Of a DNA stretch of 64,000 bases, positions 5,662-46,459 are shown piece after piece. The notes below the pieces were generated by a model, which worked only from the letters and a program-made list of their open reading frames with translations, searched no databases and had not been told where the DNA came from. A program made the position numbers and the translations under genes. Origin of the DNA: Eledone cirrhosa. Lineage: Eukaryota. Each line of letters opens with the position of its first letter. Position 1 is the first letter of the stretch. The DNA lies in assembly GCA_964016885.1 (NCBI GenBank), contig OZ024740.1:199950001-200014000 (forward strand). Reading direction: 5' to 3'.

Positions 5662-5698
<37 letters not shown>
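5662..5698. repeat. (TAA)n microsatellite, 3' tail/target of Tx1 copy 1
   Basis: Direct inspection. Confidence 0.95.
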
Positions 5699-5700
<2 letters not shown>

Positions 5701-5986
5701 TCCTTTATTGGCCACAAGGGCTGACATCAAGAAAAACACCACAGACGGAACAGGACGGTACGATGTGGGTTTTGTGCGTGTAAATATTTTTATTATTTAT
5801 ATAAGAAAAGAAAAAGACATAAAACATATATATATATATAAACAATAAAATGAAAATTAAAACAATGAAAAATTCCCCAATAGGGAGGTAACCTCCGAGG
5901 GTTACTCGTGGCGAAAACCACACAAAAGACACGGCCCCACTGACTACCAGGGCAAGCGCCTTCACTCAATTTTTCCATCTCTCAAA

Positions 5987-8900
5987 CTACAGACGTATAT
6001 TCACACCCGTTCACCATCAAGGAAGCACCAGAGATGTCGCAGCCTCAGCGCATGTTTGTGCATCATCAGCCATGACATGCCCAGTCCTCGGACCATTCTC
6101 GCTACATTCACCCACCTTTCAACAAACTTGCTAGAAAGCAGCACTTGCCTCTCCACCATGATGTTCCTCTTCAAGCGAAACTTGAAAAAGTTAATCAGGG
6201 TTCGCCGAAGAGGAAAGTGTTTGTCTTTAATCCTTTTAACCTTTTCCACCACACAATCTCTTTCGCCATGGCCACCAGGCAGATGAAAACCGCCTGCCCT
6301 TCCTCCTCAAAGGAAGACGGCGAGACCATCAGCACAATGGACTCAGTCGCAAACCGGATCAGTCCCACACGTGACAGCAACTATTCGACATAGCTCCACA
6401 AGTCAACAATGCTCGGGCACTGAATGAGTGCGTGCACAACGGTTTCGTCGCTATGCGCGCATCTCGGACAGGCTCGGCTGACGGGACTTCCGTGCCTGTA
6501 GAGCTTATCTCGAACCAGCAGCGCTCCCCGGTAGCACTGCCAGGCCAGGGATTTTTGGAAGTTAACCATAGGCCCCGCGCTGAAAGTTCTCCGGAAGAGA
6601 GCAATCAGCTGATTTTCTTCGACGCCCAGGATCTCTCCGAGAACGTCGTCGCTCTTCCCCTCCACTAGTCCTCTATAGAACGCCGAGGTGGATGTTCGAC
6701 CGATACTGGTGCCCAACTGGGAGAGGGCAGTCAGCGCCTGGAGATATTCCAGTTTCCAAGCGCTATCCCTCGGTCTTTTTCTGACCCAGGACTGCAGCTC
6801 CGTCAAGGAGACGAGCTGTGGGAAAATGTGCCTGGCGAACGGCGACCACACCCGTTCACCATCAAGGAAGCACCAGAGATGTCGCAGCCTCAGCGCATGT
6901 TTGTGCATCATCAGCCATGACATGCCCAGTCCTCCACGCAACGGGTGTTGACAGCAGATGGATCGTCTGAGCATGGGAGCGCGTCCCTTCCACACAAAGC
7001 GGAAGAGGAGGCGCTCCATTTTGGTGAGAGTTGGGCTGGAGCAAGGGACCACGGTGAGGCGGTAGCAGATGACGGATGCAATGTACGCATTCGCCACTTC
7101 AGCCCGGGCTTTCAGGTACAGCTTCCTCTCAGCCCATTTCTGGGTCAGGGAGGCCACCCTGCTCGTCACCTCGTTCCAGTTTTTCTCCATCTGGAGGTCC
7201 GGTCCGAACCAGACCCCGAGCAATTTAACCGGTCCGTCCGTCCAACGCCACACGACACTGCAAGCCCACCGACTTTTCCTGGTTTATCTTTGCTCCTGTC
7301 ACCGCTTCGTATTCCTTGAAAACGGTGCCGAGCATCTGGACGTGTCTGGTGCTCGACACCACCACGGTGACGTCGTCAGCATAAGCCGACTCGGATCTTC
7401 CGCATCCTAGTTCGTGTGGGACGCCCCTCATCGCCCCCAGTTTGTGCAGTAACGGCTTGAGAGCCAATACGTACAAGAGGGATGAGACTGGACAACCCTG
7501 GCGGACTGAGCGCATGATGCTGAACGGCTGCGACAGGTGACCGTTCACCCTCACAACTGAGCAGATGTCGCTCTACATTTCTGCCACCCAACACATGAAA
7601 CGGGCCCGAAACCGGCTGCCTCGAGGAACCCCGCCAGGTACCGATGGTCGACCCTATCGAATGCTTTGGATTGATCCAAGTTGATCAGGGCCCCACCCTT
7701 GCCAGGTTCCTTAACCACCCTCTCTATGATGTATCGCATGAGGTGGAGGTTGTATATGGATCTGTCCGGGATGGCGCATGTCTGCGCCTCTCCCACCAGA
7801 CCCTTGACGACAAGCGCCAACCTCTTTGCTAACACCTTGGCCAAAATCTTGAACTCTGCGTTTAGCAGGGTTATGGGCCTGAAATTATCAATAACATCCC
7901 CCTTGTTCGGGTCTTTTCTCAGCAGCGTCACTGCTCCCCGGCTCACAAAACTGGGAATGCTCCCGTTCTGCTGCCAGTTGCAATAGACGTCTGCCAAGAG
8001 GTCACCGAACAAGTCTGGCATAAATGCATAAAGCTCGTAGGGCAGACCATCTAAACCTGGCGATTTACCTCTTGTGCAGTTAGCCATCGCTTCCCGTATT
8101 TCACCAGCTGTTATTGGCTTTTCGCAACACTGTGCTGCGGTCGTCGAGAGCTGAAGCAGTCCGTCGAGGCATGCACTGAAGTCCATGCCCCGATCCGGGC
8201 CGCCGCCGCTCCCGAACAGTTCAGCAAAGTGCTGCTGAAAAGCTTCACACATCCGCTCGGGTTCGAGCATCACACACCCGTTCTGGTCAGACAAAGACCG
8301 AATTGTGGCTTTATTGCCACGTCGCGCATCTGCCACCCGGGCCCATTGGACGGCTTTTGTCCCCTCGTGTTTCAGAGCACGCACTCTAGCTCTGACAACG
8401 CAGCCTTCGTGTTTTGCGTTGAAGAATTGGTCGAGTGCCAATCTCGCCGCAAGCACGTCGGTTGCGATGCATGTCCTAAACGCCTCTTCTAGCTTTATGA
8501 CTAGCTCTCCCTCTGCTCTATTTTCCTCTATCACTACTCCTTTGCTAAACCTAATCGACTCTACTTTAATTGCCCTTTTCAGGGCGAACCACCACCTGTT
8601 GTTGACGACTGCTCCCGTCAACGCCCGCTTAACTAATACGCTAATCCGGACTCTGTAGGCCTTGCGCGCCGGGAAAGACGCGTTCAGCTTCCAGTAACCA
8701 GGCCCTTGTCTATGAAGTCTGTCTATGTCGATCTCACAGATCATAAATTTGTGGTCTGTGTAGTCGACTATTTTAAATTGTGGACAACATATACTAGCCT
8801 TATCTAGTTCCCTGCAGAATACCCTATCTAGATACGATCTGGATGACCCGATGCGGTTTGTCATTGTCCACATTGGAACATTCGGGTGATCCAGTCGATA

Positions 8901-9431
8901 CCTGTCAGAGAGTTCAAAACGTCTGAGCAGGTTGGTGAGGCTATTGCACCATCCTCCCCTATCCACTAGCCCCACACGATCCCAACGTGCATCCAAGATA
9001 CCGTTCCAGTCGCCCAGTATCACTAAAGAGCTGGACGTTCCAAGAAAGGTCTCTAGACGTCTGAAGAAATCTTGCCGTCCTGCCCCTGTTGGGGCGTAGA
9101 CAGCTACTAGCCTGAAAGCATTGCTTTCGCTGCTGGTCACGTCCAGCACCACCGACTTACCTTCCGGGTCCAGGAAGATGGCCCGTATCGCGAGATCCAA
9201 ACCTCTCCGAAAAAGGACGACACCCCCTCCTCCCGATACTGGACGGCTGGGAGATGCGTATACATCGTAGCCGCCGAAGATCGGTGCGAAGGCCCGTGCC
9301 TCGGAGATTCTGGATTCACTGATGGCCACCACATCTATGTTTAGTGACCTGAGGACATTGAGCAGGTGACCCTGCTTCCAAGATAACCCCAGGCCACGTG
9401 CATTTATACTGCCTATTCTGAGTACAGCCAT
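5987..9431 (-). pseudogene. Tx1 ORF2: AP-endonuclease + reverse transcriptase + Cys-rich domain, frameshifted
   Basis: ORFs 7551-9467, 7225-7554, 6381-7253, 6195-6380: SINARGL, VYAP, GDWN, YLDR, TDH, KSPGLDG, NFRPITLLN, LDQSKAFD, RQGCP, AYADD, CPRC..ETVVH...C. ATG in CAACATG context at 9431. Confidence 0.92.
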
Positions 9432-9463
9432 GTTGGATGAGAAACGGGGCAAATGAGAAAGGG

Positions 9464-11445
9464 TCACTTACCTTCTTCGTGTGGTGAAGGGACAGTAGAA
9501 CCGCCCCTTTCGCTGGTCATGGGTGTTTCCAAGAGGATGTCAGTGTATATCCTCTTGGTAACCGTCCCTCTGAAGTCTCCAACAACGTTGGGGAATTTTT
9601 GTTTTAAAGGTTTGTATTGTTCTATTGAGATTTCGATGATGCTTATGTTTGTCGGAAGAGTTCTTGGTGTTGGTGGGGTGAAGTAGTTTTTTTTCCGTGA
9701 TGTCTGTGTGCTGCTTTATATATTTTATGAGTTCTTTTTTTGCTATGTTTATGGCTGTGTAAGTTTGGGGGGGAGGGGTGGTTTTGTTGCCGTTTTCTTC
9801 TTGTTGCTGTTTGGTGTATGTGTCGTGTTGTGTTTGCGTTGTTGGTGTTTGTGGTGGTGTTGCTGCAAGTTTCCTTGCTGCCTTTACCTCTCTTTGTATG
9901 CCTTCGCTTTTGGAGGGTGAATCTAAGGTTTTTTTTGTTTTTTGTTTTTTGTGGCAGACTGTTTGCCACGTCACTCCCGCCTCAAACTCCATGTCGGATT
10001 CTGTGGCGTCTGTGACGGGTATATGCTCCACAGCTGTTGGTGGTGGTAGTGGAGCCCTCTTCGGCAATGGTGTTGCTGGTGTAGCTATTTTAAATGTAGC
10101 TATTGGTGTTGCCGCTACTGATGATGCTGCTTTAGTTATCCGTGGCCTTGTACGGGTGCTACGGACGTTGCCCTCCTACTCACCGTGGAAGGGGCTTCTT
10201 CGTTTGTTGCCTGTCCTGCTCTTGGTAGCAGCGGAACAGCTATTGAAAGGAGAGGGGCCTTCTTCGCTGTCTTCTGTGGGAAAAAGGCCCTGAGGTGACC
10301 TTTCGACCCACAGAGATAACATTTTGGCCGTCTTCCTTCTACACTTATAGGGAGTTGGAGTCCTTCCTCAAAGTCTATGATATCGGGGATAGCCTCGATA
10401 CATTCCTGGTCAGTTTGTATAAGCATTTGCATGCCTATACCTGACCAGTTCTCTCTCCCTATTTTTTCTACTTGCAGCATGCTCGCCCTGTTCTTAATTC
10501 CAGCAAGGACAGACGCGGCCAGCCAAGGTATGGGCGCGTCGGGTGGGACCTGGGTCACTTTCACCCTCACAATTTTCTGCCCGCAGTAGGAGGGCACCAA
10601 GACTAACTCCTCACTCTTTAGGGTTTCCAAAGAGTGAGACTTTGCTTCCTGGGGGGTGGCGAAAAGTATGTCTACTGTGGCGTACTTTCTGCCTCGGGTG
10701 ATGTGGGTTTTGCGTGCCCAGACGCACCCCAAGGCCTTTTTGATTTTAGCCTCCGTGGCTCTCTTCATTCGATGTGAGATTTTGCTTACGGTGCGGTAAG
10801 TCACCTTTCGTAGCTGCTGGTCCTTGAAAAAATCGGGTGGAGGTTTCAGGGAAACTCTATTTGCGCTTCTTGTCACCATGGCCCTTGAGACTGCCATCTC
10901 CTCCTCTGTGACTAACACTGTCTCGATATTTCGGGCGACACCTGCAAAAGAAGTGGTTCCTTTTTCAGCAGCACCACTATTGTTGCCGCTACTGGTCTTA
11001 CTGGTGGTGCTGAGGTCGCTATTACAGGTATCGGTGTCATTGTTGTTGTTTTCGCTGGTACAGTTGTTGGTGTTGTTTTCGTTGATACTGTTGCTGCTGT
11101 TACTGTTATTGTGGCTGTTGTTATTATTGTTGTTTTTGTTGATACTGTTCCTACTATTATTGTTGTTGTGGCTGTTGTTATTGTCATTGTTATTGTCGTT
11201 CTCGACCTTACCGCCGTTATTTTTGTTATTGTCGTTCTCGACTTTACCGCTGTTATTTTTGTTATTGTCGTTCTCGACTCTACCGCTGTTATTTTTAGTG
11301 TTGTTGTTGGTGATGCTGTTGGTTTTATTGTTGGTGTTGTTTGTGTTAGAAATATTTGTTAATTTTAAATCTGTAACAATCTTTTTTTTCCTTTGTAATA
11401 TTTTCGTTTATATTTACCTCCGCTGGAACGCTGTCTTGTTGACAT
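9464..11445 (-). pseudogene. Tx1 ORF1: N/T-rich N-terminus, central domain, CCHC zinc knuckle, P/T-rich tail; frameshifted
   Basis: ORF 10136-10918 has EGRRPKCYLCGSKGHLRAF; ORF 9540-10067 follows. Homologous to the ORF1s of copies 2 and 3. A 36-bp unit repeats three times at ~11191-11298. Confidence 0.75.
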
Positions 11446-11725
11446 GCTGATAAAGTCTCCCTCTCTCTGTGTTGTCTGACAGCGCTCTCTCTCTTTTTTG
11501 TGTTATCCATATTGAAATTTTTCAAAAAATATTTTTACACAAATACGAATGCGACACCCCGTAAAGGGGTGCCTTATTATTTACTAGTGAACCCCTGTAT
11601 TAGGTGGGTCACTTCTTCTAAACTTTTATCAAATTTAAAACTTGAATAAAAGGTTTAGAACGGTTGAAAAAGAGGTAAAACGTTGAAAAAGACTGGAGGC
11701 GATAAGAAGCGTGGCTTCACCAACC

Positions 11726-11746
11726 AATAATAATAATAATAATAAT
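11726..11746. repeat. (TAA)n spacer between Tx1 copies 1 and 2
   Basis: Direct inspection. Confidence 0.95.
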
Positions 11747-11983
11747 GCTTTCTTTATTAACCACAAGGGTTTACATAAAGTAGACATTAAGGACAGTACA
11801 GGAAAATACAGGACGGTACAAATGGTCATTTCTGCGTGTAAAAAAAACAGAGGATGTAATAAAAAATAACAATGAAAATGGGGGGGAGACTTCCGAGGGG
11901 CATTTGTGGAGAAAGCCCATTAAAAGGCCACAGCGACCCTGACCACCAGGGCAGGTGCCCTCTCCCAGTTTCCCACCTTTAAT

Positions 11984-14695
11984 TTACAGACATATACTCA
12001 GAGTAGGCCCATTCACACGGGCCACACTTGCTTCTTTCACCCATATTTCAACAATATGCTGGGAAGAGAGCACTTCCCTCTCTACCCTGATTTTCCTTTT
12101 CAAATGAAATTTGAAAAAGTTAATCAGGGCATCACCGAAGAGGTAAGTGCTCGTCTTCAGCCCTTTCAAACTTGTCCACCATACTATCTCTTTCGCCATG
12201 GCCTCCAGACAGATAAAAACTGCATGCTCTTCCCGGCTAAAGGAAGAGGGCGGGGCAATCCTCACGATGGACTCAGCTGTTAGCTGGATCCGTCCTACAC
12301 GTGACAGCAGGTGTTCGACATAAACCCACAAGTCAGCAATGCTCGGACACGAGTGCGTGCAGGACGGTTTCGTCGCCCTGCGCGCATCTCGGACATGCCC
12401 GGCTGACGGCACCTCCATGCCTGTAGAGTTTATCCCAAACTGGCAAAGCTCCTCGGTAGCACTGCCAGGCCAGGGATTTCTGAAAGTTGTCCATAGGCCC
12501 CGGCCCGAAAGTCCCTCCGAAGAGATTGGCTAGTTGATTTTCGTCGACGCCTAGAGTTTCTCCAAGTACGTCGTCGCTCTTCCTCTCCACTAATCCTCTA
12601 TAGAACGCCAAGGTGGAGTATCCACCGATCACATTGCCCGATTAGACGAGGGCTGTGAGCACCTAAAGACATTCCAGTCTCCAAGCACTCCCTCTCGGTC
12701 TTCGCTTGACCCAGGATTGTAGTTCCGTCAAGGAGACGAGCTGGGGAAAGACGTGTCTAGCAAACGGCGACCACACCTGATCACCGTCGAGGAAGAGGTG
12801 GAGATGTCGTAGGCTGAGTGCGTGCCTGCGCATCATCAGTCACGGCATGCCCAGCCCTCCACGTAGCGGGTGTTGACAGCAGATGGACCGCCTGACCATC
12901 GGAGCGCGTCCCTTCCACAAAAAGCGAAAGAGCAAATGCTCCAGCGCAGTCAGACAAGGTACCACGGTCAGGCGGTAGTAGATAACGGACGCGATGTACG
13001 CGTTAGCCACCTCCGCTCGAGATTTCAGGGATAGCTTCCTCTCCGCCCATTTCTGGGTGAGAGAAACCACTCTGCTCGTCACCTCGTCCCAGTTTTTGTC
13101 CGTCAGGTGGTCCGGACCGAACCAGACCCCTAGCAATTTAACCGGTCCGTCCGTCCAGTGCCCGACGACGCTGTTGGATGGCATGGACCTGCCTCTCCAG
13201 GTGTCGAGCTTCAGGTCCACTGACTTTTCCTGGTTGATCATTGCTCCTGTCACCACTTCGTATTCTCTTAGTGTAGTGCCGATCGCATCGATGTGTTTGG
13301 CGTTCGACATCACTACGGTGACATCGTCCGCATATGCTGACACGGATCTTCCGCATCCTAGTTCGCGCGGGACGCCCCTCAACGTCTCCAGCTTGTGCCA
13401 TAATGGCTCGAGAGTCAATACGTACAAGAGGGACGAGAGGGGACATCCTTGGCGGACCGAGCGCATGATGTTGAACGGTTGCGAAAGGTGACCATTCACT
13501 CTCACCACAGAGCAGATGTCGCTGTGCATGTCAGCGATCCAGCCTCTGAAGACGGGCCCAAAGCAAGCCGCCCTCAGGACTGCCGCTAGGTAACGATGGT
13601 AGATCCGATCGAAAGCTTTCGATTGATCTAAATTCATCAAGGACCCACCCGTGCCAGGTTCCCTAGCTACCCTCTCTACGATGTATCACATGAGGTGGAG
13701 GTTGTCGTGGATGGATCTGTCGGGAATGGCGCACGTCTGCGCCTCTCCCACCAGACAACCAACGACAAGCGCCAACCTCTTTGCTAGCACCTTGGCCAAA
13801 ATCTTGAACTCTGTGTTTAGCAGAGTTATGTGCCTGAAATTATCTATGTTATTCCCCTTGTTCGGATCCTTTCTCAGCAGCGCCACTGCTCCTCGGTTCT
13901 CAGAGCTGGGAATTCTCCCGTTCTGTTGCCAGTTGCAGTGGGTGTCTGCTAAGAGGCCTCCGAACAAGTCTGGCATCTGTACGTAAAGTTCATAGGGCAG
14001 ACCATCCAAACCAGGCGATTTACCCCTTGTGCAGCCAGTCATTGCTCTCGTACTTCAGCGGCTGTTATCGGCTTTTCGCAACACTCCGCCTCAGTGGCCG
14101 AGAGCCGTGGCAGTCCGTCGATTTGTCCAAGTCCACATTGGCACATTCGGGAAATCCAATCGGTACCTGTCAGACAGTTCAAAACGCCTGAGCAGGTTGG
14201 TGAGGCTCTTGTACCCTCCTCCCATATCCGCTAATCCCACAGAGTCCCAGCGTGCATCTAAGATCCCGTTCGAGTCGCCCATTAACACTAAAGAGCGGGA
14301 CGTTCCAAGAAAGGTCTCCAGACGCCGGAGAAAATCAGGCCACCCTGCTCCTGTCGGAGCATAGACGGCCACTAGCCTGAAAGCTTGCCCGTCTCCGATG
14401 GTCACCTCCAGCACCACCAACTTACCTTCTGGGTCCAGGAAGATGGCCCATATGGCGAGATCCAAAGCTCTCCGAAAAAGCACAGCAACTCCTCCCACCG
14501 ATCCCGGACGGCTGGGAGATGCGTACACATCGTAGCCGCCGAAGATCGGTGCGAAGGCCTGTGCTTCGGAGAATCTGGTCTCGCTGATGGCCACTACATC
14601 TATGTTTAGTGACCTGAGGTCGTTGAGCAGGTGGCCCTGCTTCATAACGACCCCAAGCCACGCGCATTTATGCTGCCTATTCTGAGTGAGGTCAT
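11984..14695 (-). pseudogene. Tx1 ORF2 (APE+RT) with ~0.7 kb deletion near 14120
   Basis: WTWTNR is joined directly to DGLPRLSATEAECCEK; the segment equivalent to ~8166-8856 of copy 1 is missing. Confidence 0.88.
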
Positions 14696-14729
14696 GTTGA
14701 AATGGAGTGGAAAAGATGGGAAAGACCAC

Positions 14730-16385
14730 TTACCTTACTTCTTGTACAGGAAGGACGGTTTCTCCATCCTTTTTACTGCTTGTGGCCTCCTCAGGAAAGA
14801 TGTCCTTATAAATCCTCCTGGAGAGTGCTTGTCGGAAGTCTCCCATGTCTTTGGGGAATTTTTGTTTCAGTGTCATGTAGGTTTTCTGTGTGATGCGAGT
14901 GATTTGTATGTGTGGAGGTGGTGTGAACTTTGGGTTGTTGTGTAGTCTTTTTCTGTGATGCTGGTGTTGTGTTGGATGTAGTGTAATAATTGGTTGTTGT
15001 TCAAATTTAATGCTGTGTAGTGTGTATCGTTTTGGTTGTTCTGTTTTGTTTGCGTTTGTTGTGGGTTTGTTTCTGTTTCGCTTTTTGGTGACTTTTGTGT
15101 TGTTAGTGATGGTGGTGTTGGGGTTAATGATGGTGATGGTGTTGGTGTTTGTGGTGATGGGGTTGATGATGCTGGTGTGGATGGTGGCATATCTGTCCTA
15201 ACTTTTTTGTTTGATAGTTTATTTGTTTCCCTCTGTATTTTGTTTTTGGAGTGGAAAGTAATAGAATTTTTTTCTTTTTTGGTTTCTTTTTTCTTTTTTC
15301 CTGATACCGTTTCCCACTCCGCGTCGTCACAATCTCTCTCCAGTTGTGATAGGCCGGGGAGTGGAAAATCCTCCACAGGCGTTGGTTTTGGTTGTGGCGT
15401 GGTGGATGGTGTAGGCGCTGGTGCTAGTTCTGGCGCGTTGGGTGGTGGTGGTATTGGTTTTGCTACTGTTGCTAGGGTTGTTGCTGTTACAGTTGCTTCT
15501 GTTGTTGCTGCTACAGTTGTTGCTGCCATCTCTGCTGCTGGTGGCGTTGATGGTTGAGTCACTGGGAGGTGGCCAGTAAGAGAGGTGGCCTCAACCTTTT
15601 ATCCTGAGGGCAGAAAGCCCTTAGGTGGGTTCCTTCATCACAAACGACACAACTAGGCCTTCTGCCCTCGACGATTAGGGTGAGGTAGTTGCCGTCAGTG
15701 TGGTCTATTACCTCTGGGATCTCCTCAATGCTTTTTTGGTCCGCTTGGATAGGGACTCCATCCCAGATCCGGACCAGTTCTCCTGCTTTTCTTTCGCTAT
15801 TTCGATTATCTTGGTGTTGGCTTCGATGCCGGCGAGGACGGCAGCTATTAGCCAGGGAATTTCGATGGCCGGCGGTACGTGGGTCACCCTGATCTTTACG
15901 AGTCTCTGGCCCAATAGCTTGGGACGAGTGTGAAGTCGTCACCTCTTAATGGGGCCATGGAGTGTTCTCTAGCCTCCTGTGGTGTTTCAAAGAACACGTC
16001 CACGGTTCCGTATTTTTGCCCACGTCTGATGTGGGGTTTTTTTGCTCACACATGTCCCAAAGCTTTTTGAATTTGGGACTCGGATGGCGCGATTTTATGT
16101 TAATTGTTCTATAAGACACGGTGAATAGGTGCCGATGCTCCATTTTATTAGGTAGGCTGCCCATGTACCCATCTTTCTTTACCATTTTTTTGGCTTTTCT
16201 AATTCCTCCTGAGTTACCTGAAATGCATCGCACTCTTTTGCTACTCTGGCAAAACTCAGGGTGGTTTTCTTCATTTCATTGTTGTTGTTATCGTTATTTT
16301 TGTTATTGTGAATTTTAGTTTCAGTTGTGGTGGTGGTGGCGTCAGTGGTGTTCGGTGTGGAAGAGTTCATTGTGGTTGAATTCAT
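14730..16385 (-). pseudogene. Tx1 ORF1, fragmented, with CCHC knuckle
   Basis: ORFs 16179-16385, 15946-16233, 15708-15914, 15559-15942 and 14873-15562 resemble copy 1 ORF1. Confidence 0.7.
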
Positions 16386-16823
16386 TTCGATATCACGAGT
16401 TAATTCTGTTGTCGCGGTGTGGTGGTGGTGGTGGCGGCTTTAACACCTGCAGTCATTGGTAATGGCGGGAAATGAATGTCTGCCTGAGACAAATTTAAAA
16501 TATTGCTACTGCTTATATTTTTAGTGTTGGCAAACGTAGTAATATTTACAATGGTGGTGTCGGTGTGAGGTGTTAGTTTGTGAGGAAGGAGTGACTCTGA
16601 GTCATCTATGATTTTTCAAAGAAAAACTTTTGATTGATAATTATAAAAGTTTAAATTTTGGGCTCAAGGCCCCAATCATTTGGGGTGTCCTTTTCAGATA
16701 ACAATGTATGTTCACTTATTTACAGTCAACAATAAAAACCTTCCATAAATGGCAATTTTAAATAACTGAAAATAACAAACCTTTGCAGAGCTCACGATGA
16801 AACGATTTACTACGTAGGTCGCC

Positions 16824-16886
16824 AATAATAATAATAATAATTGTTTCTACTTTTGGCACAAGGCCAGCAATTACACAGTGTATTAC

Positions 16887-16948: not shown

Positions 16949-18872
16949 TTTAGAGATTTTCAAAATATCCCCCGTTGTCAGGAGGTTTTTGTCATTCAGT
17001 ATGAGGACATGGAGAACGACACTCCTTTTGAATAGTGAAACAAAATCACTGGAAGCTGATTATATTAATTGTGGAATGTTTCAGGGTAACTCTTTATCAC
17101 CGCTTTTATTCTGCATCGCACTTATACCATTAAGTAAAATGCTCAATGAAACAAAACATGGATATATAGTCTATAACAAAACCATTAATCACCTGTTCTA
17201 CATGGATGACCTGAAACTATTAGCAAAAAATGATGAACAATTGCAAGGGCTATTATCCACTGTGAAGCAGTTAGGTGATGACATTAAAATGGAGTTTGGA
17301 CTGGATAAATGCGCCAAAGCAACGTTCACCAGAGGAAAGCTGCTGAAGAGTTCAGACATTAATCTTGATCGGGGGAACGTGATAAGAGAGCTTGATCAAG
17401 AAAAAAACTTACAAATATCTAGGTGTTTGTGAAGGAGACGGAATCAAGCACTCGACAATGAGGGAAAGGATAAGGAAGGAATGTTACCGCAGAGTCAGAG
17501 CAATCTTAAGAACGGAATTGAATGCAAGGAATAGGATCGATGCCATGAACACGCTTGCCATACCAGTAGTAACCTACAGTTACAATGTCATCAACTGGTC
17601 AAGCACAGAGATCCGTAGGCGCGATACAAAAATCCGAAAATTCTTAACCATGCACAGAATGCATCACCCTAAGGCAGACATAGATAGAATATATCTCCCT
17701 AGGAAAGAAGGAGGACGTGGGTTAATCCAGTTAGACATTGCGTTGAAAACTGCAACAATTGAATTATCCACATATCTAAGGGAATCACATGATTGGATGA
17801 TCAAACTCGTTTTGAAACACGAAAGCACCAGAAGATCATATTCCATTACAAAAGATGCACAAAGATACAGTAATGGACCACAAATTTCAGAAGTCCCATT
17901 TACTGCTGAAATGGAAAACACAGAAAAAGCAAAGCAGGTAAAAGTAACTGCAAAGAAAGAACTGCTACAGAAACTGGCTAAGAAATGGCAAGAAAAGCCT
18001 CTGTATGGAAAATACCCAGAACGAGCTAACAATCCTGATTTTGACAAAACTTTATACCCATCAGTGGTTGGCTTCCTCTGGACTGAAATCGGAGACTGAA
18101 GGACTGATTATATCAGCACAAGTTCAGTGTCTGCCAACAAAAAATTACCAAGCCAATATAATAAAAAATGGATGCAGCTATTATGCCGTGTATGCAAAAA
18201 ACAACCAGAGACCATTGAACATATAATTTCAATGTGCAGTCCTATAGCTCCAACCGAATACCTAAACAGGCATGACAGAGCTGCACAATACATACATTGG
18301 ATAATGTGTAAGCATTTTGACCTGCCCCATCAAGAGAATTGGTGGGAGCATCAACCACCTCCCATACTTGAAAAAGATCACATCTCAATCTTGTGGAACT
18401 TTAGCATCCAAACAGACCGAAAAATAGATGCAAATAGACCTGATATAATATTGAAGGACTTTCAAAGGAGGGTATGCCTGCTAATTGATATGTCTGTTCC
18501 AATAGACAAGAATGTATCTATAAAAACATTTGAAAAATTGAGCAAGTATAAGGACTTTGAGATAGAAATTGGAAAAATGTGGAAATTGAGAACTAAAACA
18601 ATACCAGTGGTTGTAGGCGCTCTGGGAATGATACCTAAGGGGTCTAACGACTACTTATCGCAAATCCCAGGAAACCCGCGTATAGGAGAAATACAAAAGA
18701 TAGTACTAATGGGAAGATCCTGTCAATATAAGTACATCACAAGTCTAAACACTAAGGATGCATGTGTGAATATGTATGTTCTTTCTTGAACATGGCGGAC
18801 CTTGTTGTCTCTTGAGGTCACTGGTTGTGACTTGGTGATAACTCGTATAAACATAAAGCAAGATAAATGCAA
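16945..18872 (+). mobile_element. R4/Dong-like LINE family B, 3' half (RT C-part, CCHC, restriction-like endonuclease, 3' UTR)
   Basis: GMFQGNSLSP, HLFYMDD, YKYLG, RKEGGRGL, CRVC...ETIEH...C, RHD, RPDIIL..IDMSVP, KLSKY. Flanked by (TAA)n. Confidence 0.9.
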
Positions 18873-18907
18873 ATAATAATAATAGTAATAATAATAATAA
18901 TAATAAT

Positions 18908-19840
18908 ATTGGCTCCTTACTACTTGACTGATAGTAAGGAGCCAATGTTCAGAACTGTACTGAAGGAGGGGACAATATGCCAGGGGATTCCAAGGAGGAA
19001 ATAACATCAAGGAGAAAGAGCAGCCTTCAGGAAAAACCCCTTCATAGTACCTTCTTTGAGAAAACTGAATTTAGAGATCCACAGACATGGAACTGGTTCG
19101 AAAGAGGAAGGAATGTTAATGGCTGCGCAGGAGCAGGCCCTCAAAACGAAGTGGTTGAAACACCATATTTACAAGGAGGCTAGCCCACTGTGCAGGATCT
19201 GTGGAGAGAGAGAGGAGACTGTGGCTCACATTGTATCCGAGTGTAAACACCTAGGCCAGTCTCACTATAAGGGCTGGAGACATGATGTGATGGGCAGGGT
19301 GATCCACTGGCACCTATGCAAAGTAAACAATTTACCACATTCTGAGAAGTGGTATCAGCATAAGCCAGAGGCGGTGATAGAAAACGATCAGGTGAAGGTG
19401 CTGTGGGATTTTAGGATACAGACGGACAAGAAACTGGAACACAATAGACCTGACCTGGTGGTTTTGGACAAAGAAAAAAGATCGTGCCTGATTGTGGATG
19501 TGGCCTGCCCATTCGAAACGAGAGTGCAAGAAAAGGAGAGGGAGAAAATTAACCGATACCAGGACTTAAAGTGGGAGGTAAAAAGGATTTGGAACTGCCA
19601 TGAAGTCAAAGTGATCCCGATTGTCATAGGCGCACTAGGGACTATCTCAAAAGGTTTCCAGGGATGGTTAAAGAAAATTGGCCCCGTCCCGCTTTTTGGA
19701 ACGCTTCAAAAGGCATGCTTGCTGGGAACAGCAAGAACCCTCCGATACGTCCTGAATATCTGAGACTGCAGGTAGTGGCTTGATATTCATCTCATCAAAC
19801 CTTCCAGTTAACTAACAACAATGACTGAGACTCAAAGTGT
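18908..19840 (+). mobile_element. 5'-truncated R4/Dong-like LINE family A with 15-bp 5' fold-back
   Basis: ORF 19056-19763: CRICGEREETVAHIVSEC, RHD, HNRPDLVV..VDVACP, EKINRY. (TAA)n on both sides. Confidence 0.92.
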
Positions 19841-19858
19841 AATAACAATAATAATAAT

Positions 19859-25500: not shown

Positions 25501-26504
25501 ATAAATAAAATAACAATATTAACGATAATAATATTTTGTTTAAGCATTAAAAATACAACGAGATTATAGTAGAACAATATTGCGCAACAAAATGTACGTT
25601 TTGCACATACTTGCGAAGTGGTTAAAGCAGTGACAGTTAGAATCCGCTATTAGGTTGAAAAGAGATCATAGATTTCAACTGTCCAAGAATGATTAGTTTG
25701 TGCAATATGTAGAAGCGGAAACGAAGCAGACAAACCAGCATGCATTTTCCTCACTGAATAGATTACAAGATCAAAATTTATAATGAGTTATCGTAGTATA
25801 TAATACATAAGGATTTTGATAAACAACAACCTGACGAGATATGTGTAATTCACTAATTAAGAGATTAGTTCTTCATGTCCCAAATCTAGTCAAACATCTG
25901 CACAGAAATAAAGGTTGCGTTTGTGGCATGATATCGGGAATTATAATATGACGTGAGCAGGATATAGTGAATACAAATATGGCGGGTGGGGATACAGATA
26001 TGATCCAGCAATATATTATCAGAGAAAATTCTCCATGTTTTCTACGTCGTATGATTAAGTGTGAGGTAGCTTATGCGTTTGTTAATGTGACGTATTGATT
26101 TGCTTCAATTCAAAATAGTGTGACTAGATTCTTTAACACTTTCGTTATAAGTGACATGATGGCTCATTTACGCCAGATTTTTAAATGAAGAGATATCTCA
26201 TAAACTTTATTGAACACTGACAATTATGGTTGTAACGATATTAATCACAATCAGATTATATTATATTAAGACTTACATCTGCCTAAATGAGAATGGAATC
26301 AAGAAGAAAATGCAGTAGAATTAAAGATTATGAACACCTCATTATATATTAAACAAATTTAACGACATTTCATGTTATATGTGACAATCCCAGGGTTTTA
26401 CAGACAGCTCCCACGTCTGCTTATTTCTGTAAATGTTGACATAATCAGTGTGTCAGCTAACATTCATACGTAAATATGTCACTGATAATGAATTTTGTAA
26501 TATA

Positions 26505-29500
26505 TCTTTCTTTATTTGCCACAGGGGCGTACAAAAAGGGACATTACAAGACGTGACGTCGAGGGTTTTACATAAAAATAACTTTAACATTAATAAACAA
26601 CAATAAACTATATATAATAAAATAACAATTGAAATCCCCAGTAGGGGGGGGGGGGCATTACTGCAGGGTTGTTTTACACCCCGTGGATAAAACAACCCTC
26701 AACACCAGGAACACTTTATGTAGGTGTTCCTGTCATCCCTCTGTTTATCTTCCTCAACCTACAGGTTTATATACAGAGAAGGCCCATTCACTCGGGCCAT
26801 TTTTGCCACATTCACCCACCTTTCAGCGAATTTACTGGGGTGTAGCACCTCTCTCTCTACTCTCACCTTCCTTCTGAAGTGGTACTTAAAGAAGGGGATG
26901 AGTTGTAGTCCGGAGAGAAAGGTATTTGCCCTCAGTCCTTTTAACCTCGTCCACCATATTACCTCTTTCGCCATATTCACCAGCCAGAGGGAAACCGCCT
27001 CTCCTTCGTTCTTAAATGAAGGCGGCGGGGTGATCCTCATTATGGACTCGGCTGACAACTGGATGCGTCCCACATGTGACAGCAACTGCTCGACATAATC
27101 CCACAGGTCGGTCACCCCTGTGCACTGAACAATTACGTGCAGAACGGTTTCGATGTCCTGCTCGCATCTTGGACAGGTCCTTTTGCCAGGATCTCTGCCA
27201 GGGCGTCCGCGTCTGTAGATTTTGTATCGAACTAGTAGAGCTCCTCGGTAGCACTGCCAGGCCAGAGATCTCTGGAAGTTATCCATAGGATAACTGGATG
27301 GAAAGTCCTCCGGAACAGACTGGTCAGTTCGTCCTCCTCGATGCCTAGAGTTTCCCCGAGAACGTTGTCGCACATATTTTCCACTAATCCCCTATAGAAT
27401 GTCGAAGTGGAGTCTCCGCTGATTGCCGTTTCCACTTGGTAAAGGGCTGTGAGCACCTGTAGGCACTAGAGGTGCCAGGCACCCATGTTCGGTCTTTGCT
27501 TGACCCAGGACTGCAGCTCTGTTAGTGGGACGAGTTGTGGAAGATCTTGTGTCACAAACGACAGCCACACCGGTTCACCGGTCAGGAATTCCTGGACATG
27601 GCCTAGCCTCAGCGCATGTTTGCGCATCATCAGCCACGGCATTCCCAGCCCTCTGTTAGAAGGATGTTGACAGCAGATGGATCTCCTCACCAATAGAGCC
27701 TGTTTCTTCCAGAGGACCTTGAAGTGTAGGCGTTCCAATTTGGTAAGGTATTCGCCAGGGCAAGGCACGACTGTCAAGCGGTAGAAGATCACGGGTGATA
27801 TGTATGTGTTCGCCACCTCCGCTCGACGTTTCAAGGAGAATGTGCACTCAGCCCACATATGGGTCATTGCAAACACCTTCGCTGTGACCTTGTTCCAGTC
27901 TTGTCCACCTGGAGGTCTGGACCGAACCAGACCCCAAGCAATTTCACCGGTCCTTCCGTCCAGCGTCCAACGACACTGGCGGATGGCATGGCTTTGCCTC
28001 TCCATGTGCCGAGTTGCAAACCGACAGACTTGTTTGAGTTTCGTATTCCTGTAATAGGTTGCTGGTTACCCTGATTTCAAAGGCTTTCGACACCATTACG
28101 GTTATTTCGTCGGCATAGGCCGACGCTGCTTTCCGCAGTCCTGGTTCGATCGGGATGCCCTGCATCTTCCGCAGTAACGGCTCGAGAGTCAGTACATACA
28201 GAATGGAGGAGAGAGGGCATCCCTGACGGATGGAACAGAATGCATGATTTGGAATGGCTCTGAAATGTAGCCATTCACCTTGACTGCCGAGCAGATGCTG
28301 GTGTGCATGGCAGCGATCCAGCCTCTGAAGACGGGACCGAAGCCGGCCGCTTTGAGAACTGCTTCCAAGTATTGATGGTCGACCCTATCAAATGCCTTAG
28401 ACTGATCTAAATTGATCAGAGCCCCAACGAAGCCAGGTTTACACTATACCCTCCCTATGATGTATCATATGAGGTGGAGGTTGTCGTGTATGGACCTGGT
28501 CGGGATTGCACACGTTTGGGCTTCCCCTACCATGTTCTCAACGACAAGCGCCAGCCTTGCTGCTAACACCTTGCCAAAATCTTTAACTCTGTGTTGAGCA
28601 GAGTTATGGGCCTGAAATTGCTTATCTCATCCTCCTTGTTGTCATCTTTCCTGATCAGCGTTACTACGCCTCTTCCTACAGAACCTGGAATCCTGCCGTT
28701 CTGCTGCCAGTTGCAGTAGACCGCTTCCAGGACGCCAGAGAACAAGTCTGGTACGCCTATGTAAAACCCATAGGGTAGACCATATAAACCGGGTGATTTG
28801 CGTTTCCCGCAGCGGCGTAGGGCATCTTCTATTCCGCTCGCAGTGATCGGCCTTTCGAAGCTCTCCGCATCGGTGCTCGAGAGTCGCGGTACGCCGTCGA
28901 GGTAGGAGGTGAAGTCCATCACCTCCCTCGGTGTGCCGCTTTGCCCGAACAGTTGTGCAAAATGCTGCTGGAAGGCCGTGCACATCTGCTTGGATTCAAG
29001 TATAATGTGTCCATCTTTGTCTTGCAAAGACCGAATTGAGGATTTGTTGCCACTTTTCGCCTCTGCCTCTCGGGCCCTGCGAACAGCTTTGGGTCCCTCG
29101 TTTCTTAGAGCACGTGTTCTACTTCTGACAATACAACCTTCGTGTTTCACGTTGACGAACTGGTCTAGTGCCGTTCTCGCCGCTAGCACAGCAGCTGTAC
29201 TGCCATTCCTAAATGCCTCTTCTATTTTAGCTACCAGTTCCTTTTCAGTTTTGTTTTTTTCTAAAGCTACTTCCTTGCTAAATGCTATCGATTCTATTCT
29301 AATTGCTCGCTTGAGAGAGCTCCACCACCTGTTGTTGACGATCGCCCCCGTCAACTGGCACTTAACTAAGGTGCTAGGTACTAGGCCTTACGCGCCGGGA
29401 GCGACATGTTTAGCTTCCAGTATTCGGGTTCCTGTCTATGTGTTCTATCAAGGTTGACTACGCAGGTGACTAATCTGTGGTCTGAATAGGCAACCATGTG

Positions 29501-32150
29501 CATTCTGTCTAATTAAAAATCTATCTAAATACGAACTAGAAGACCAGGTGCGGTTGCTCCACGTCCACAGTGGTGCACTTGGGAAGTCTAGTCGATATCT
29601 CTTAGCCAGTTGGAATTGGCTGATGATATTTTTGAGGCTATTACACACCCCTCTATTATTACAAGCTCCTACATAGTCCCAACGTGCGCCTAAGATGCCA
29701 TTCCAGTCCCCCGATAACACTAGGGTGCGAGACGTTCCCAGGAATGGCTCCAGACGCTTGAAGAACTCTGGTCACGATGTCCCCGTCGGGGCATATACGG
29801 CCACCAGTCTGAAAGCTCCTCCTTCACTACCATTCACGTCCAGGATCACCAGGCTTCCCTCCGGGTCTAAGTGAATCGTCTGAATTTTGAGATCCAAGTT
29901 TTTTTCGAAACAGAACAGCAACTCCCCTCCACCTCCTGACTAACAGAGAGATGCGTAGATCTCAAAGTCTTCGAATATGTGGGTTAGCTTCTGCTTGTCG
30001 TGAATCCTGGACTCGGTGATACCTATCACATCTATACAATGTGACCTGGGATAATTTAAAAGCTGACCTTGTTTCCAGGACATGCCCTGGCCACGTACAT
30101 TAAAAACATCCAGCTTGTACAGTCGCCATGTTGGTGAAGGAGAGTTAAGGAGAGAAAAGGCAGGAACACTTACCTTTTCGTTTCCTGGAGGTCGGGTTGT
30201 TCGATCTCCATGTCCAGATTGGTGATGTTTGGGGAGGGAGGGAATCATTTTAGCAGAACACGGTTAAGGGTCTTTTGACAAGGGGGGCCCACATCATGTG
30301 GGAAGTTATCTTTTGAAGTTTCATACTGTAGGGTTGTTACCCTGATAAGTTTGAGTTGTGGGGGTGGGTCATAGCTGGGGAAGGTTTTCACTTCTGTTTG
30401 TATTGTGGGGTCCGAAAGGACCCCACAATACAAACAAAAGTGTAATGTGTTTTTTTTTTTTATGTGTACTGTTTCTGTTTGTTGTTTTCTTTTTGTGGTC
30501 GGGGTTTGTGATTGTGGTGGTGTGGCTGTTTGTTTTGTTGGTGAAGTGTTTGGTTGTGTTAGTGGTGACTGTGTTGTTGGTGTGTGTGTCGTTTGTGGTG
30601 GTGTGTTTATGGTGGGGTTGGGGGTGTGCGTGTTTTCTGTAGATGTTTTTGTGTTTTTTTTGTGTCTGTTTCGTTTTGGGGATTTTTGGGGTTCCTCTTC
30701 ATTCTCACTTGGAGATGTAGAGGTTCTCGTGTCTGAAACTTCTGAATCAGGGGTAGATGGGAGGGATATGTTATGTGGTGGAGTGTTTGTGTAGGTGTTT
30801 GCGGAATTATTTGACAGGGGGGGGAGGCAATGGAGGGTTTTTCAGTGGGATTTTGTGTGTGTGGTTGTCTCTGGTCTGTGGTGGTGTAGGAGTGGATGTT
30901 GCAGGTTTGTGTGTTGTGTTTGCTTTGGAGTGTTGATGTTGGAGTTTTGGTGTTGGTAATAACACCTTGTTTGTCCTCGGTTTGTTTAAGAGAAGGCAAA
31001 AGGCCTTTACGTGTGTGGTTTTCCCACACTCATGGCACTCAGGTCTTTTCCCCTCCACTAAAACGGAGATGACATCTTCCTCAAGGAGGATCCTGTCCGG
31101 TATTCTCTCAACTCTCTCTGGCCTCATTTGTACCAGAACCTCGATGCAGGTTCCAAACCAGTTATGCCGGCCTGTCCTGTCTACAGATAGGAGGGTGTCC
31201 TCATCCTTCCTCAGGATGCAGCGTAGGATCCACCATTGTTGACTTCTGTTGGGATCCTGATTATTTATATTTTGTAGGATCTTCTGCCCATGTATGTGGG
31301 GAGGAAGACGTGTTGATCCGTTTTTATTGGGTCAACCGAGTGTTTTTGTGCCAGAGTTTCGCTCTTAAAGAGGACTGACACACTTCCATACTGTTTACCT
31401 CTTTGGAGGTATGCCACGTCTGGCTTGGTGTCTTTTAGTGCAGCTTCAATAGTACTTGTTGGGAGCGTTATGGGTTTTTTTGGTAATGATGTCAACTGTT
31501 CTATAAATTAGCTTCTTTTTCTGTGTCCTTTCTCTTACTTGTAGGGGTGTGTGTATGTGTGGGGTGTCTGCCTCAAACGTCACATAGTTAGAAGCTTCTT
31601 CCAAATATTGGGACTTTTGGCAAATGTCCATGGGGTAGTATTTAAAATCCTGTTGCTTAGTAACGGTTGCTGCAAATGAAATGTTGTTATTGGTGGTGAT
31701 GATGGTGTCATTCGTTGTGTTGCCACTGATTCTTTTTGTTGTGTTGTTATTGTTGCTTGTGGTGGAGTTAGTATTTGCTACACATACTTCCCTCTGTGTG
31801 TGGATACATGTGACGTTTGTGATGTCAGGCGTGATCAGTTGCTTACAAGCAGCTGAAGCTTGTTCTACTTCTAAATGTTGAGGCGATAATGTTAGCATTT
31901 CTTTGTCCATGTTGCTACTACCTGCTAGTAAAGTAGGCATGGCTTTCCCTTCCCATCTTCTTGTTTTGACAAAGAAGTAAGTGCCTTTGTTTCGGCCATT
32001 TTTTTAAAATTGAATTGTTTTGCAAAAGTTTTGCGAAAATATTTTGGATGTTTTTGCCCAGAGGGGCACGATATTTTGGGAGACTGACCAGATCAAAATT
32101 TGACCTGTCAGTCCCTCTACAAATTGGTATAAAAATAAAAGTTCAAAGAT
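26505..32150 (-). mobile_element. Tx1-clade LINE, copy 3, near full-length, more degraded subfamily
   Basis: ORF1 pieces (EGKRPECHECGKTTHVKAFC) and ORF2 pieces (FNVRGQG, GDWN, YLDR, KSPGL.G, NFRPITLLN, AYADE, CPRC). 3' AATAAA at ~26511-26516. Confidence 0.9.
26759..30129 (-). pseudogene. Tx1 ORF2 (APE+RT), disrupted
   Basis: ORFs 29940-30248, 29448-29720, 28563-29354, 27944-28165, 27466-28005 and 26759-27373. Confidence 0.87.
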
Positions 32151-36990: not shown

Positions 36991-37047
36991 AACTGGAAAC
37001 ATTTGAGAAGGAATTCTTCAAAATGATCAGAAATCTATATATATGTA

Positions 37048-37126
<79 letters not shown>

Positions 37127-37133
<7 letters not shown>

Positions 37134-39587: not shown

Positions 39588-40266
39588 GTAAATATTTGCT
39601 CTACGGTTCTTATATATTTGATATATATTTATCCTTATCGAGCATTCTTTTGATTTTAGTCTTCATATTCATTATTACTATATATGTATATATATATATA
39701 TACGTGTATGTATGTATGTGTGTGTGCGTATATGGGTGCGTGTATGTGTGTGTTCGTCTCTGTGTGTGTGACTGTGTGTATTTATATATATATATATATA
39801 GGCAAGTCGTCTCCTGGATAGGGCGTGGAATGTACGATTTTATTACCATAGGCGCGATTTTGAACGCAATATATTATATCACGCTGCCCTTTCTCCCATT
39901 AAGTTATTCTTTTTTATCTGTATTATTGTTTTAGGGTAACCGCTTTCCCAGGATTGCTTCTCTATCTATCTCTTGTTTCCTCCACCTACATTATATTTAA
40001 GATTTGTATGCATATAAATTATGTATTTAAACATAAATGCAAATAGCTACGGGCAATTTATTTATACACATAGGTACAAGCATATATAAAATTTATGTAC
40101 GTACCTATATATTTATATATGCATGTACATATTTGTGTAAATGCATATATACACGTGCGCATATGTATGTAAGTGCGCATACACCTGCATAAAGCCATCT
40201 AGGCGAATAGTTACATATACATGCGGAAATGAATGTATCTAAATGCATGCATGTATATTGCATGTA

Positions 40267-40300
<34 letters not shown>

Positions 40301-40739: not shown

Positions 40740-40799
40740 ATATCTGTGTATATTTATGTATGTATGTACGTATGTATATTTACACGCACACACACACAC

Positions 40800-40871
<72 letters not shown>

Positions 40872-40962
40872 TATGTATATATATATATATAAATATATAT
40901 ATATACATATGTATATATATATATATGTGTAATATATATATATATATCTACATATATATATG

Positions 40963-43404: not shown

Positions 43405-46240
43405 AATTAGATTCTTAGTTAGAAGTAAGGATAGGGACATATTAAGCTGTCCAGAAATGCACACGGTTGGCTACACGGATCACAAATTAGTGACCTGCGT
43501 GGTCAATCTCGAGAAAACACATAGACAGGGTCCCGGTTACTGGAAACTTAATTTGTCTTTACCGGCAAAAGAGACTTACAGAAACCGGATTAGCAGATTA
43601 GTTAAGGAGAGGTTGACGGGTGCAATCGTCAACAACCGATGGTGGGCATCTCTCAAAAGATATATTAGAACAGAATCAATAAGTTATAGCAAGATGTTAG
43701 CTGCCGATAGGAATAGAAACGAGAAAGAATTAACAGGTAAATTAGAAGAGGCAATCAAGAGCGAAGATGTGGCCAGAGTGCTGGCATCGAGGACGGCCTT
43801 GAACCAGTTTTTCGATGCAAAGCACGAAGGCTGCGTCATTCGAAGTAAAATACGTGCTCTAGGTAATGAGGGGGCCAAAGCCGTTGGATGGGCCCGCGTG
43901 ACAGAAGCTAAGAGTGGAAATCGATCCACCATCCGGTCGTTGCAAGACGAAGATGGACGGGTGATCCGGGAGCCTAAGCAGATGTGCGAGGCCTTTCAAA
44001 GGCACTTTGCCCGATTGTTCGGGGGAGGCGAGGGTCCGGGCGGGGGCGTGGATTTCGGTCCATACCTCGACGGCCTTCCGCGTCTCTCGAACGAAGAGGC
44101 AGAGTCCTGCGAGGGACCAATCTCGGCTGATGAGATCGGAGATGCGCTGAGCCATTGCAGCAGACGCAAATCTCCAGGTCTCGATGGTATACCTTACGAA
44201 CTTTATTTAGCAATGCCGGTCTTCTTCTCCGAACTCCTCGAAGCGGTCTACTGCAATTGGCAGCAGAACGGGAGAATTCCTTGTTCTGTAGCCAAGGGCG
44301 TAGTCACGCTGGTGAGGAAGGACGAGCACAAGGGGGATAGTATAAATAATTTTCGGCCCATAACCCTGCTAAACACAGAGTTAAAGATTTTGGCCAAGGT
44401 GTTAGCAAAGAGGTTGGCGCTTGTCGTGGGTGGCCTGGTGGGAGATGCGCAGACATGTGCTATCCCATCCAGGTCCATTCACGATAACCTCCACCTCATG
44501 CGATACATCATAGAGAGGGTTGGCAACAAACCCGGCTTCGGTGGGGCCCTGATCAACTTGGATCAGTCTAAGGCCTTCGATAGGGTCGACCATGGTTACC
44601 TGGATGCGGTGCTAGCGGCGGCTGGGTTCGGTCCTGTTTTCAGAGGCTGGATCACTGCCCTACATAGCAACCAGATCTGTTCTAGGATCAAGGTGAACGG
44701 CTACCTTTCGAAGCCGTTCGAAATCACACGATCCATTCGACAGGGGTGCTCTCTCTCCTCCCTTCTGTACGTATTGACTCTCGAGCCTTTACTGAGGAAG
44801 TTGGAGTTGTTGCAGGGTATCCCCCTGGAACCAGGATTGAGCAAAGCGGTGTCGGCCTACGCCGATGACGTAACAGTAATGGTATCGACCGACTCGGAGA
44901 TCGAGGCGATCGGTACCTTACTGGAGGAGTACGAAAGGTTATCAGGAGCGAAACTGAACCGGGAAAAATCCATCGGGCTGCAACTCGGAACGTGGAGAGG
45001 CAGACCGATGCCTCCTGACGGTGTCGTCGGACACTGGACGGAGGGCCCGGTAAAGTTGCTTGGCGTCTGGTTTGGACCGGACCTCCAGGTGGAAAAGAAC
45101 TGGAACGAGGTTACGAACAAGGTGTTTGCACTAACCCAGAAATGAGCCAAGTGTAAGCTGTCCCTAAAAGGCCGGGCGGAGGTGGCGAACATTTACATAG
45201 CGTCCGTCACTTACTACCGCCTGACTGTCGTGCCTTGCCCTAAGGAAACACTCACCGCCATGGTACGCATGCCCTTCCAATTTCTTTGGAAGAAGCGCCC
45301 TCCTATGGTTAGAAGATCCATCTGCTGCCAACAACCTTCGAAAGGAGGGCTGGGGATGCCGTGGTTGATGATGCGTAGGCACGCATTAAGGCTACGGCAC
45401 CTACAGGTATTCCTCATTGGTCAACCGGTGTGGGCTCCGTTCGTGAAACGAGCCTTTCCGAGACTCGTCTCGCTCACCGAGCTACAGTCCTGGGTCAAGC
45501 AAAGATCCGGAAAACTGGGAGACTGGCACACTGAGTGTGCTCAGGCGCTCAGGGCTCTCTGGCAAGCGGGCCAGGCCATCGGTGGAGAATCCACCTCATC
45601 ATTCTATAGAGGGCTGGTGGCTAGCAGGGACGATGACACCCTTGGAGAGTCGCTGGACATGGAAGAAGACGAACTGGCCAGCCTGTTCGGTAGGACTTTC
45701 GGCCCAGGACCAATGGACAACTTCCAGAAGTCACTGGCCTGGCAGTGCTATCGGGGGGCTCTACCCGTTCGAGAGAGGCTCTACAGACACGGGCGCCCGG
45801 GCAGGGATCCCTCAAAAAAGATTTGCCCTAGATGCGTGCGTCACGAAGAAACCGTTGCGCACTCATTGGTGCAATGTCCGGGCGTGGCCGATCTGTGGGG
45901 CTACGCCGAACGACTGCTGTCGCGGGTGGCGCCGATTAAATTGACCGCTGAGTCCGTGATGACAATGAAACCGCCTCCCCTCTTCACAAAGGAAGCAAAG
46001 GCGGTTTTTCTGTGCGTAATAGCCATGTTGAAAGAGGTTGTTTGGTGGACACGATTGAAAGGTCTGAGGTCAGGCAACTTCCTCTCTGGCCATAGTCTGG
46101 TCTACTTCTTCCGATATCACTTCGGAAGAAGGATAAGAATGGAGAGAGAGGTGCTTGGCCACAGGCAGTTTTATGAAAGGTGGGTGATAGTGGCGAGAAT
46201 GGCTCGTGTAAATGGGCCTTCTCTGTATACCATCCTGTAG
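43405..46240 (+). pseudogene. Tx1 ORF2, partial, one in-frame TGA at 45143-45145
   Basis: ORFs 43274-45145 and 45182-46240 share a frame; the stop replaces W of QKW seen in other copies. Confidence 0.9.
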
Positions 46241-46458
46241 GTAGAGAAGTAAAGGAGAGGGGAGCACCTTCTCCATGTGCTCCCCGGGCAAAGGATTGCA
46301 CACTTTTTCGGGGGTGTGTGCAACCCCCATCACGTCTCCTCCCTTTTGAGGTTATTTTCGATTATTTTCATGTTACACCCTTTTTACTCGATTATATGTA
46401 AACTCCCCCTTTGTATTTGTCCCTTCTTTTTATGCCTTTATGGTAAATAAAGAAAAGC
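43405..46458 (+). mobile_element. 5'-truncated Tx1-clade LINE, copy 4, inserted in (ATCT)n; best-preserved copy
   Basis: End of APE (TDHK), RT (KSPGLDG, NFRPITLLN, LDQSKAFD, RQGC, AYADD) and CPRC domain. AATAAA at 46446; (ATCT)n on both sides. Confidence 0.93.
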
Positions 46459-46459
46459 A

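Follow-up and report, generated by a model that had tools for sequence, protein, structure and literature searches.

The window (the whole 64-kb stretch of DNA that was analysed) holds four decayed copies of one clade of L1-group LINEs. Copy 1 (5699..11725, minus strand) is a full-length decayed LINE flanked by (ATT)n tracts, with an AATAAA at 5709. Copy 2 (11747..16823, minus strand) is also full-length and decayed and lies in tandem upstream of copy 1. Copy 3 (26500..32100, ends approximate, minus strand) represents an older subfamily, and copy 4 (43405..46459, plus strand), which is flanked by (ATCT)n tracts, is 5′-truncated and has neither ORF1 nor the splice donor described below. Pairwise ORF2 identities among copies 1-3 are 81%, 71% and 71%. 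The family is a high-copy one, matched by 37,000-41,000 contig pieces per run in X1-X3.

The ORF2 of copy 1 (5987..9431, minus strand) is broken; it encodes an APE endonuclease, an RT and a zf-RVT domain, and its last codons are CTG TAG. ORF2 of copy 2 (14695-11984, minus strand) terminates in CTG TAA, while those of copy 3 (30129-26759, minus strand) and copy 4 (end at 46240, plus strand) terminate in CTGTAG|GT. Upstream lies ORF1 (in copy 1 at 9464..11510, minus strand, broken by frameshifts), with an Asn-rich start, a ZCCHC3-like RNA-binding region, one CCHC-like knuckle and a low-complexity tail. The two ORFs of copy 1 are separated by a pyrimidine-rich spacer (9432..9464, minus strand) that ends in CAAC directly before the ORF2 ATG.

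Two of the copies carry rearrangements. In copy 2, ORF2 is missing about 690 nt near 14119-14121 (equivalent to 8168-8853 of copy 1); inspected by eye, the gap does not have GT..AG ends and so is not a splice. Copy 1 has one exact 88-nt stretch of its ORF2 at both 6002-6089 and 6847-6934. The insert near the ORF2 end replaces about 15 nt and is absent from the family contigs, and it looks like the product of a template switch.

Pfam domains PF03372, PF00078 and PF13966 (N-terminal APE endonuclease, RT and C-terminal zinc finger) were matched in ORF2, and the separate upstream ORF1, the short spacer and a 3′ UTR carrying a poly(A) signal are those of the L1 group. A profile built from ORF2 and its relatives had human L1 ORF2p as its best match (E 1e-181), with R2 at E 1e-61. 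The atlas look-alikes of ORF1 are zf-CCHC and ZCCHC3-type proteins (0.91-0.94); the Pfam zf-CCHC match of ORF1 (E 0.043) is below the Pfam cut-off. An ORF1 with RNA-binding domains and a CCHC knuckle is a feature of the Tx1 clade. Among named proteins the nearest is one of Argonauta hians, at 54% identity, and the family groups with it at support 100/97 in an endonuclease tree that contains no named Tx1 or L1 rows; an octopod host is therefore likely. Tx1 membership is plausible, and the searches matched no named Tx1 sequence. Protein searches with ORF1 gave no matches, a longer-protein search with the endonuclease gave one distant match, and viral contigs gave no relatives, none of 60 pattern matches there encoding a LINE ORF2. 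L1-Tx1 families have been recently active in Octopus vulgaris, according to an excerpted report (PMC13282606).

Microsatellite adjoins three of the four copies (flanks at 5662-5698, 11726-11746, 16824-16841, about 43340-43404 and 46460-46510). ATT tracts separate and surround the head-to-tail copies 1 and 2, and ATCT tracts surround copy 4; copy 3 is not clearly flanked. This may point to microsatellite targeting, with a repeat unit that differs by subfamily. Kibi and Koshi are Tx1-clade non-LTR retrotransposons that target microsatellites (PMC4494074), and as far as the excerpted description goes they share with the present family the two ORFs, an APE-RT-zinc finger ORF2, an ORF1 with a CCHC-like knuckle, the short spacer and copies lying in microsatellites. 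The present family differs from them in its (ATT)n and (ATCT)n tracts and in the donor that is conserved at its ORF1 stop, where the same excerpts describe none for Kibi or Koshi.

That donor is the decamer AAGGTAAGTG (AAG|GTAAGTG), which occurs three times on the minus strand of the window, once per ORF1 end, and nowhere else in it. A preliminary description had reported it as identical at three ORF1 stops, and it is found at each: over the ORF1 end of copy 1 (9465..9474, frame GGT AAG TGA) and over the ORF1 stops of copy 2 (14727..14736) and copy 3 (30167..30176), both in the frame AGG TAA. The chance expectation for the window is 0.08 (shuffle mean), and 0 of 100 shuffles reached three. Just 5′ of the motif copy 1 is one base shorter than copy 2, and ORF1 there reads GGT AAG TGA. 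From the donor G to the ATG of the CAACATG that starts ORF2, the distance is 40, 38 and 44 nt in copies 1, 2 and 3, within the 38-44 nt given earlier, and CAACATG is as invariant as the decamer.

The surrounding sequence is strongly diverged, as had been claimed: all three copies agree at 34% of the 348 columns that cover the spacer and the ORF1 3′ end, and at 43% of 176 four-fold sites in ORF2. The preliminary description had proposed comparing the decamer with its neighbours, and in the three copies it is the sole identical run of at least 7 nt in those 348 columns. The probability that its sites stayed unchanged is about 0.003 for the seven free sites, with TAA taken as fixed, and about 0.0002 for all ten. 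The evidence comes from three copies in one genome, and since these have a common ancestor they count as one origin of the motif and its retention on three branches. The excess of conservation over four-fold sites nevertheless makes it likely that the decamer has been selected as nucleotides, and the selected role is most plausibly that of a U1 site.

The decamer scores 12.8/12.9 bits on a rough donor matrix, whose values are approximate, and agrees with the MAG|GTRAGT consensus on the sense strand; of 1,919 background windows, 0.05% score at least 12 bits. With the 5′ end of U1 it would form eight Watson-Crick pairs. It is the top-scoring donor on the sense strand of copies 1-3, tied in copies 1 and 2 with a second perfect donor, AAGGTAAGT, in the P-E-G-K codons of the ORF2 endonuclease (9155..9163 in copy 1, 14428-14420 in copy 2, minus strand). 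This second site lies about 310 nt downstream of the ORF1-stop donor and is missing from copy 3; a perfect donor can therefore persist in copies 1 and 2 without evident use. The E-G-K of these codons is common in close protein relatives.

We surveyed 43 distinct rows of metagenome L1/Tx1 loci, of which seven with a doubtful ATG were set aside beforehand and 36 kept. No donor of at least 9 bits was found upstream of ORF2 in any of the 36, and none of at least 10 bits near any of 34 distant ORF1 stops; the motif is therefore not general to L1/Tx1. Two of the seven rows set aside exceed 9 bits. L062 (11.9 bits) has a near-identical donor 79 nt upstream of the ORF2 ATG, within ORF1 coding sequence, and the 9.9-bit site of L085 does not precede a true ORF2 start. 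Moderate donors stand at the ORF1 stop of L024 and L026 (7.2 and 7.6 bits). The donors of L062, L024 and L026 may have arisen by chance. Since none of the 17 fetched loci that were placed in a tree fell within the clade of the window, the survey speaks to distant relatives and not to close ones.

The spacer had been described as a pyrimidine tract, which holds for its composition (pyrimidine share 0.69-0.83) but makes it only partly special, since in the distant relatives this share has a median of 0.55 and a maximum of 0.77. In copy 1 the donor is predicted to pair with this tract in a 9-bp hairpin (9448..9472, minus strand), and in copy 3 a predicted 9-bp hairpin (30154..30179, minus strand) covers the donor in a different register; that of copy 2 is weak. 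When only the tract was shuffled, folds as good arose in 10, 29 and 4 of 200 shuffles for copies 1, 2 and 3 in a short context and in 26, 96 and 17 of 200 in a longer one. Against whole-sequence shuffles the hairpin is not significant (z -0.8, 0.1 and -1.8), the consensus fold has four pairs and no covariation, and Rfam returned no match. Because the registers differ and covariation is lacking, the hairpin is a lead only. As such, predicted damping of the donor would explain how a perfect donor could leave most RNA unspliced. The hairpin at the major donor of HIV-1 damps a splice donor in a like manner.

The preliminary description had gone on to propose that ORF2 is a spliceable intron ending at an acceptor-like CTGTAG at the ORF2 stop of copies 1, 3 and 4, with TAA in copy 2. 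These letters are as described (CTGTAG at 5987, 26759 and 46240, CTGTAA at 11984), and copies 3 and 4 read TAG|GT there. On a rough matrix the ORF2-stop AG scores 0.0, 3.6 and 6.5, ranking 60 of 261, 20 of 277 and 7 of 220 AGs, and it is accounted for by a Leu codon (CTG) plus the stop. With TAA in copy 2, there is no 3′ splice site at the ORF2 stop conserved across the subfamilies. The copy 2 TAA may reflect decay; G>A hypermutation as its cause is unsupported because the share of such changes in copy 2 (22 of 88 private changes) resembles that in copy 1 (21 of 95). In copy 1 the tract upstream of the ORF2-stop AG has been overwritten by the private duplication, and among the loose ends listed (24 of 9,185) the family contigs often show another AG (GAG) shortly upstream. 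Neither ORF2 nor the 3′ UTR contains a strong AG that all copies have in common; the best single score (10.8, at 11832 on the minus strand) is in the 3′ UTR of copy 2 and private to it. On coding grounds the ORF2-stop AG nonetheless fits best among the acceptors, as far as the reading frames indicate. Joined to it in silico, ORF1 closes after one codon in the present frame of copy 1 or eight in its ancestral frame, after 14 codons in copy 3 and after one in copy 4 (frame assumed). Two other candidate acceptors lie early in ORF2 on the minus strand: one at codon 28 (9349..9350; copies 2 and 3, 14614 and 30046), which would define an intron of 120-128 nt and join ORF1 to ORF2 in frame, and one of weak score at codon 5 (9418..9419; copy 2, 14682; none in copy 3), giving an in-frame join and a 52-54 nt intron.

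Spliced copies were sought, as had been suggested, through junctions from the donor GT. Four contig runs (one study; the kind of run is not on record) were aligned to copy 1 over 5750-11030 at 80% likeness, and the rows listed comprised 15 of 1,584 joints, 24 of 9,185 loose ends, 40 of 1,944 letter differences and 12 of 94 indels. Among the 15 of 1,584 joints listed, none has CT..AC ends and none touches 9471/9472, the test being an insensitive one, and no loose end falls at the donor among the 24 of 9,185 listed. One 610-nt X4 contig spans 9026-9581 unbroken and unspliced across the donor. As an internal control, the duplication private to copy 1 is seen at a depth of 651 against about 90,800 in its bin; sensitivity is thus low, and rare spliced copies would be missed. 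The contigs argue against spliced copies as a large share of the family and say little on rare splicing. No ORF1-only copy was seen in the window; HAL1 elements are of this ORF1-only kind.

The donor feature is real and unexplained, and some role for U1 at it is, taken overall, probable. The reading we prefer, tentatively, is that of a U1 donor which is rarely spliced and would give an ORF1-only RNA. U1 snRNA would bind the decamer on the ORF1 stop as a 5′ splice donor, and the predicted hairpin with the pyrimidine spacer would damp it, so that the donor would be used rarely and most transcripts would remain unspliced. In a minority of transcripts ORF2 would be spliced out, leaving an ORF1-only mRNA. 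The cut would take out the stop of ORF1 itself, a new stop following soon after in the last exon, and the mRNA, keeping the native 3′ UTR, would raise the ORF1p:ORF2p ratio. In its bold and most specific form, with ORF2 as a facultative intron running from the hairpin-damped donor to the ORF2 stop codon, the stop regenerated and the native 3′ UTR kept, the proposal is possible, if doubtful. The donor half of that claim is supported by conservation and by absence from the distant loci, but the weak ORF2-stop AG and the TAA of copy 2 do not bear out the acceptor half.

The nearest parallel is in plant Ty1/copia elements, where a strong donor is conserved and its quality counts for more than the acceptor's (PMC5580714, as excerpted); since copia splicing is better predicted by the donor than by the acceptor, a weak acceptor is not fatal to the preferred reading. 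The shGAG RNA of EVD likewise involves a conserved U1-type donor at the boundary of structural and catalytic parts, and U1 has two roles there according to the excerpts of that paper: it permits an RNA for the structural protein alone, and it protects the full-length RNA (PMC5580714). EVD is, on the same account, a single-ORF LTR element that uses a short intron and terminates early, whereas the present family is a bicistronic LINE with a candidate intron of 3.4-3.5 kb and its native 3′ end kept, and its splicing is only predicted. Human L1 has functional donors in its RNA, and spliced copies (SpIREs) can retrotranspose; in the excerpted account these events lie within the 5′ UTR or run from the 5′ UTR to ORF1 and are judged harmful, unlike a selected site at the ORF1 stop (PMC5860796). 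Drosophila TART is a non-LTR element with spliced forms, but its introns, as reported in excerpts of PMC1636488, are antisense. The strings 'Tx1' and 'splic' are absent from the main text of an octopus LINE expression paper (PMC9115989). A literature search, with subscription journals and Repbase outside its scope, found no report of this donor.

In a rival reading, U1 might bind without splicing, shielding the long ORF2 half of the RNA from early cleavage and polyadenylation or retaining the RNA in the nucleus. Such binding would conserve the same decamer and needs neither the conserved acceptor nor the junction that are missing (the latter among the 15 of 1,584 contig joints listed), and U1 bound to the EVD donor blocks early termination (PMC5580714, in excerpt). 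No copy, however, has an AATAAA or ATTAAA in the first 800 nt that follow the donor, and copy 3 has none anywhere in ORF2, so that there is little obvious for U1 to suppress, and several usable AGs follow downstream; we regard this account, too, as rather doubtful. Alternatively, the motif might be a translation signal (a stop context and hairpin aiding re-initiation at the CAAC-ATG) or another protein-binding site, its match to a donor coincidental and helped by TAA. The overlap with the stop, the three donor letters that TAA supplies, the equal invariance of CAACATG and the stop-covering hairpins of copies 1 and 3 speak for this; yet five further letters match U1 exactly (by our own estimate about 1 in 1,000 given TAA), copy 1 keeps the motif despite its shift in register relative to the stop, and distant relatives with similar spacers lack such a motif. 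On balance it is unlikely.

A short intron of 52-54 or 120-128 nt to an early ORF2 AG, removing the ORF1 stop and giving an in-frame ORF1-ORF2 fusion protein, would make direct use of the two candidate acceptors at codons 5 and 28. Both join in frame, in the AGG TAA frame, and the codon-28 AG is the best-scoring AG common to copies 1-3 (7.0, 4.2 and 7.6). But the codon-5 AG is weak and missing in copy 3. At codon 28, Lys, Met or Trp stands in several relatives, and the join there would remove the first strand of the endonuclease together with a conserved Asn. We presume that this Asn is catalytic. The joins stop at once in the present frame of copy 1, the invariant CAAC-ATG points to a start of ORF2's own, and no fusion appeared among 150 endonuclease matches or in the longer-protein search, all of which makes a fusion very improbable. 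Hardly better placed, and highly unlikely in our estimate, is a neutral motif, in which a chance ancestral donor was kept by luck and by Arg-stop codons. Only three related copies are at hand, scanning many windows will surface some such runs, and the ORF2-internal twin indicates that codon choice can yield perfect donors; against this stands a probability of about 0.003 for retention of the seven free sites, multiplied by about 0.001 for the ancestral match.

In the usual view, L1-group LINEs fix their ORF1p:ORF2p ratio at translation, with a single unspliced RNA as template. A perfect ORF1-stop donor kept across subfamilies diverged by about 30% would mean that a LINE purposely employs the spliceosome or U1, as copia does, and under the ORF2-intron reading, if true, a bicistronic LINE would control its protein ratio by splicing, much as copia does. 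Copies lying in introns would bring with them a strong donor by which host exons could be trapped. Should there be no splicing, a U1 site conserved without being spliced would remain worth attention. The donor gives an exact junction to look for in cephalopod RNA data.

The window also contains other repeats. Fragments of a LINE of another type at 17458-21877 (plus strand), with an RT match at 20915-21877, have no DNA similarity to copies 1-4. A MITE-like element with long inverted repeats, seen by eye, lies between TA tracts at about 42040-42660, and a near-pure TA-type microsatellite of about 3.5 kb occupies about 46600-50100, where GC content falls to 5% at 48-50 kb.
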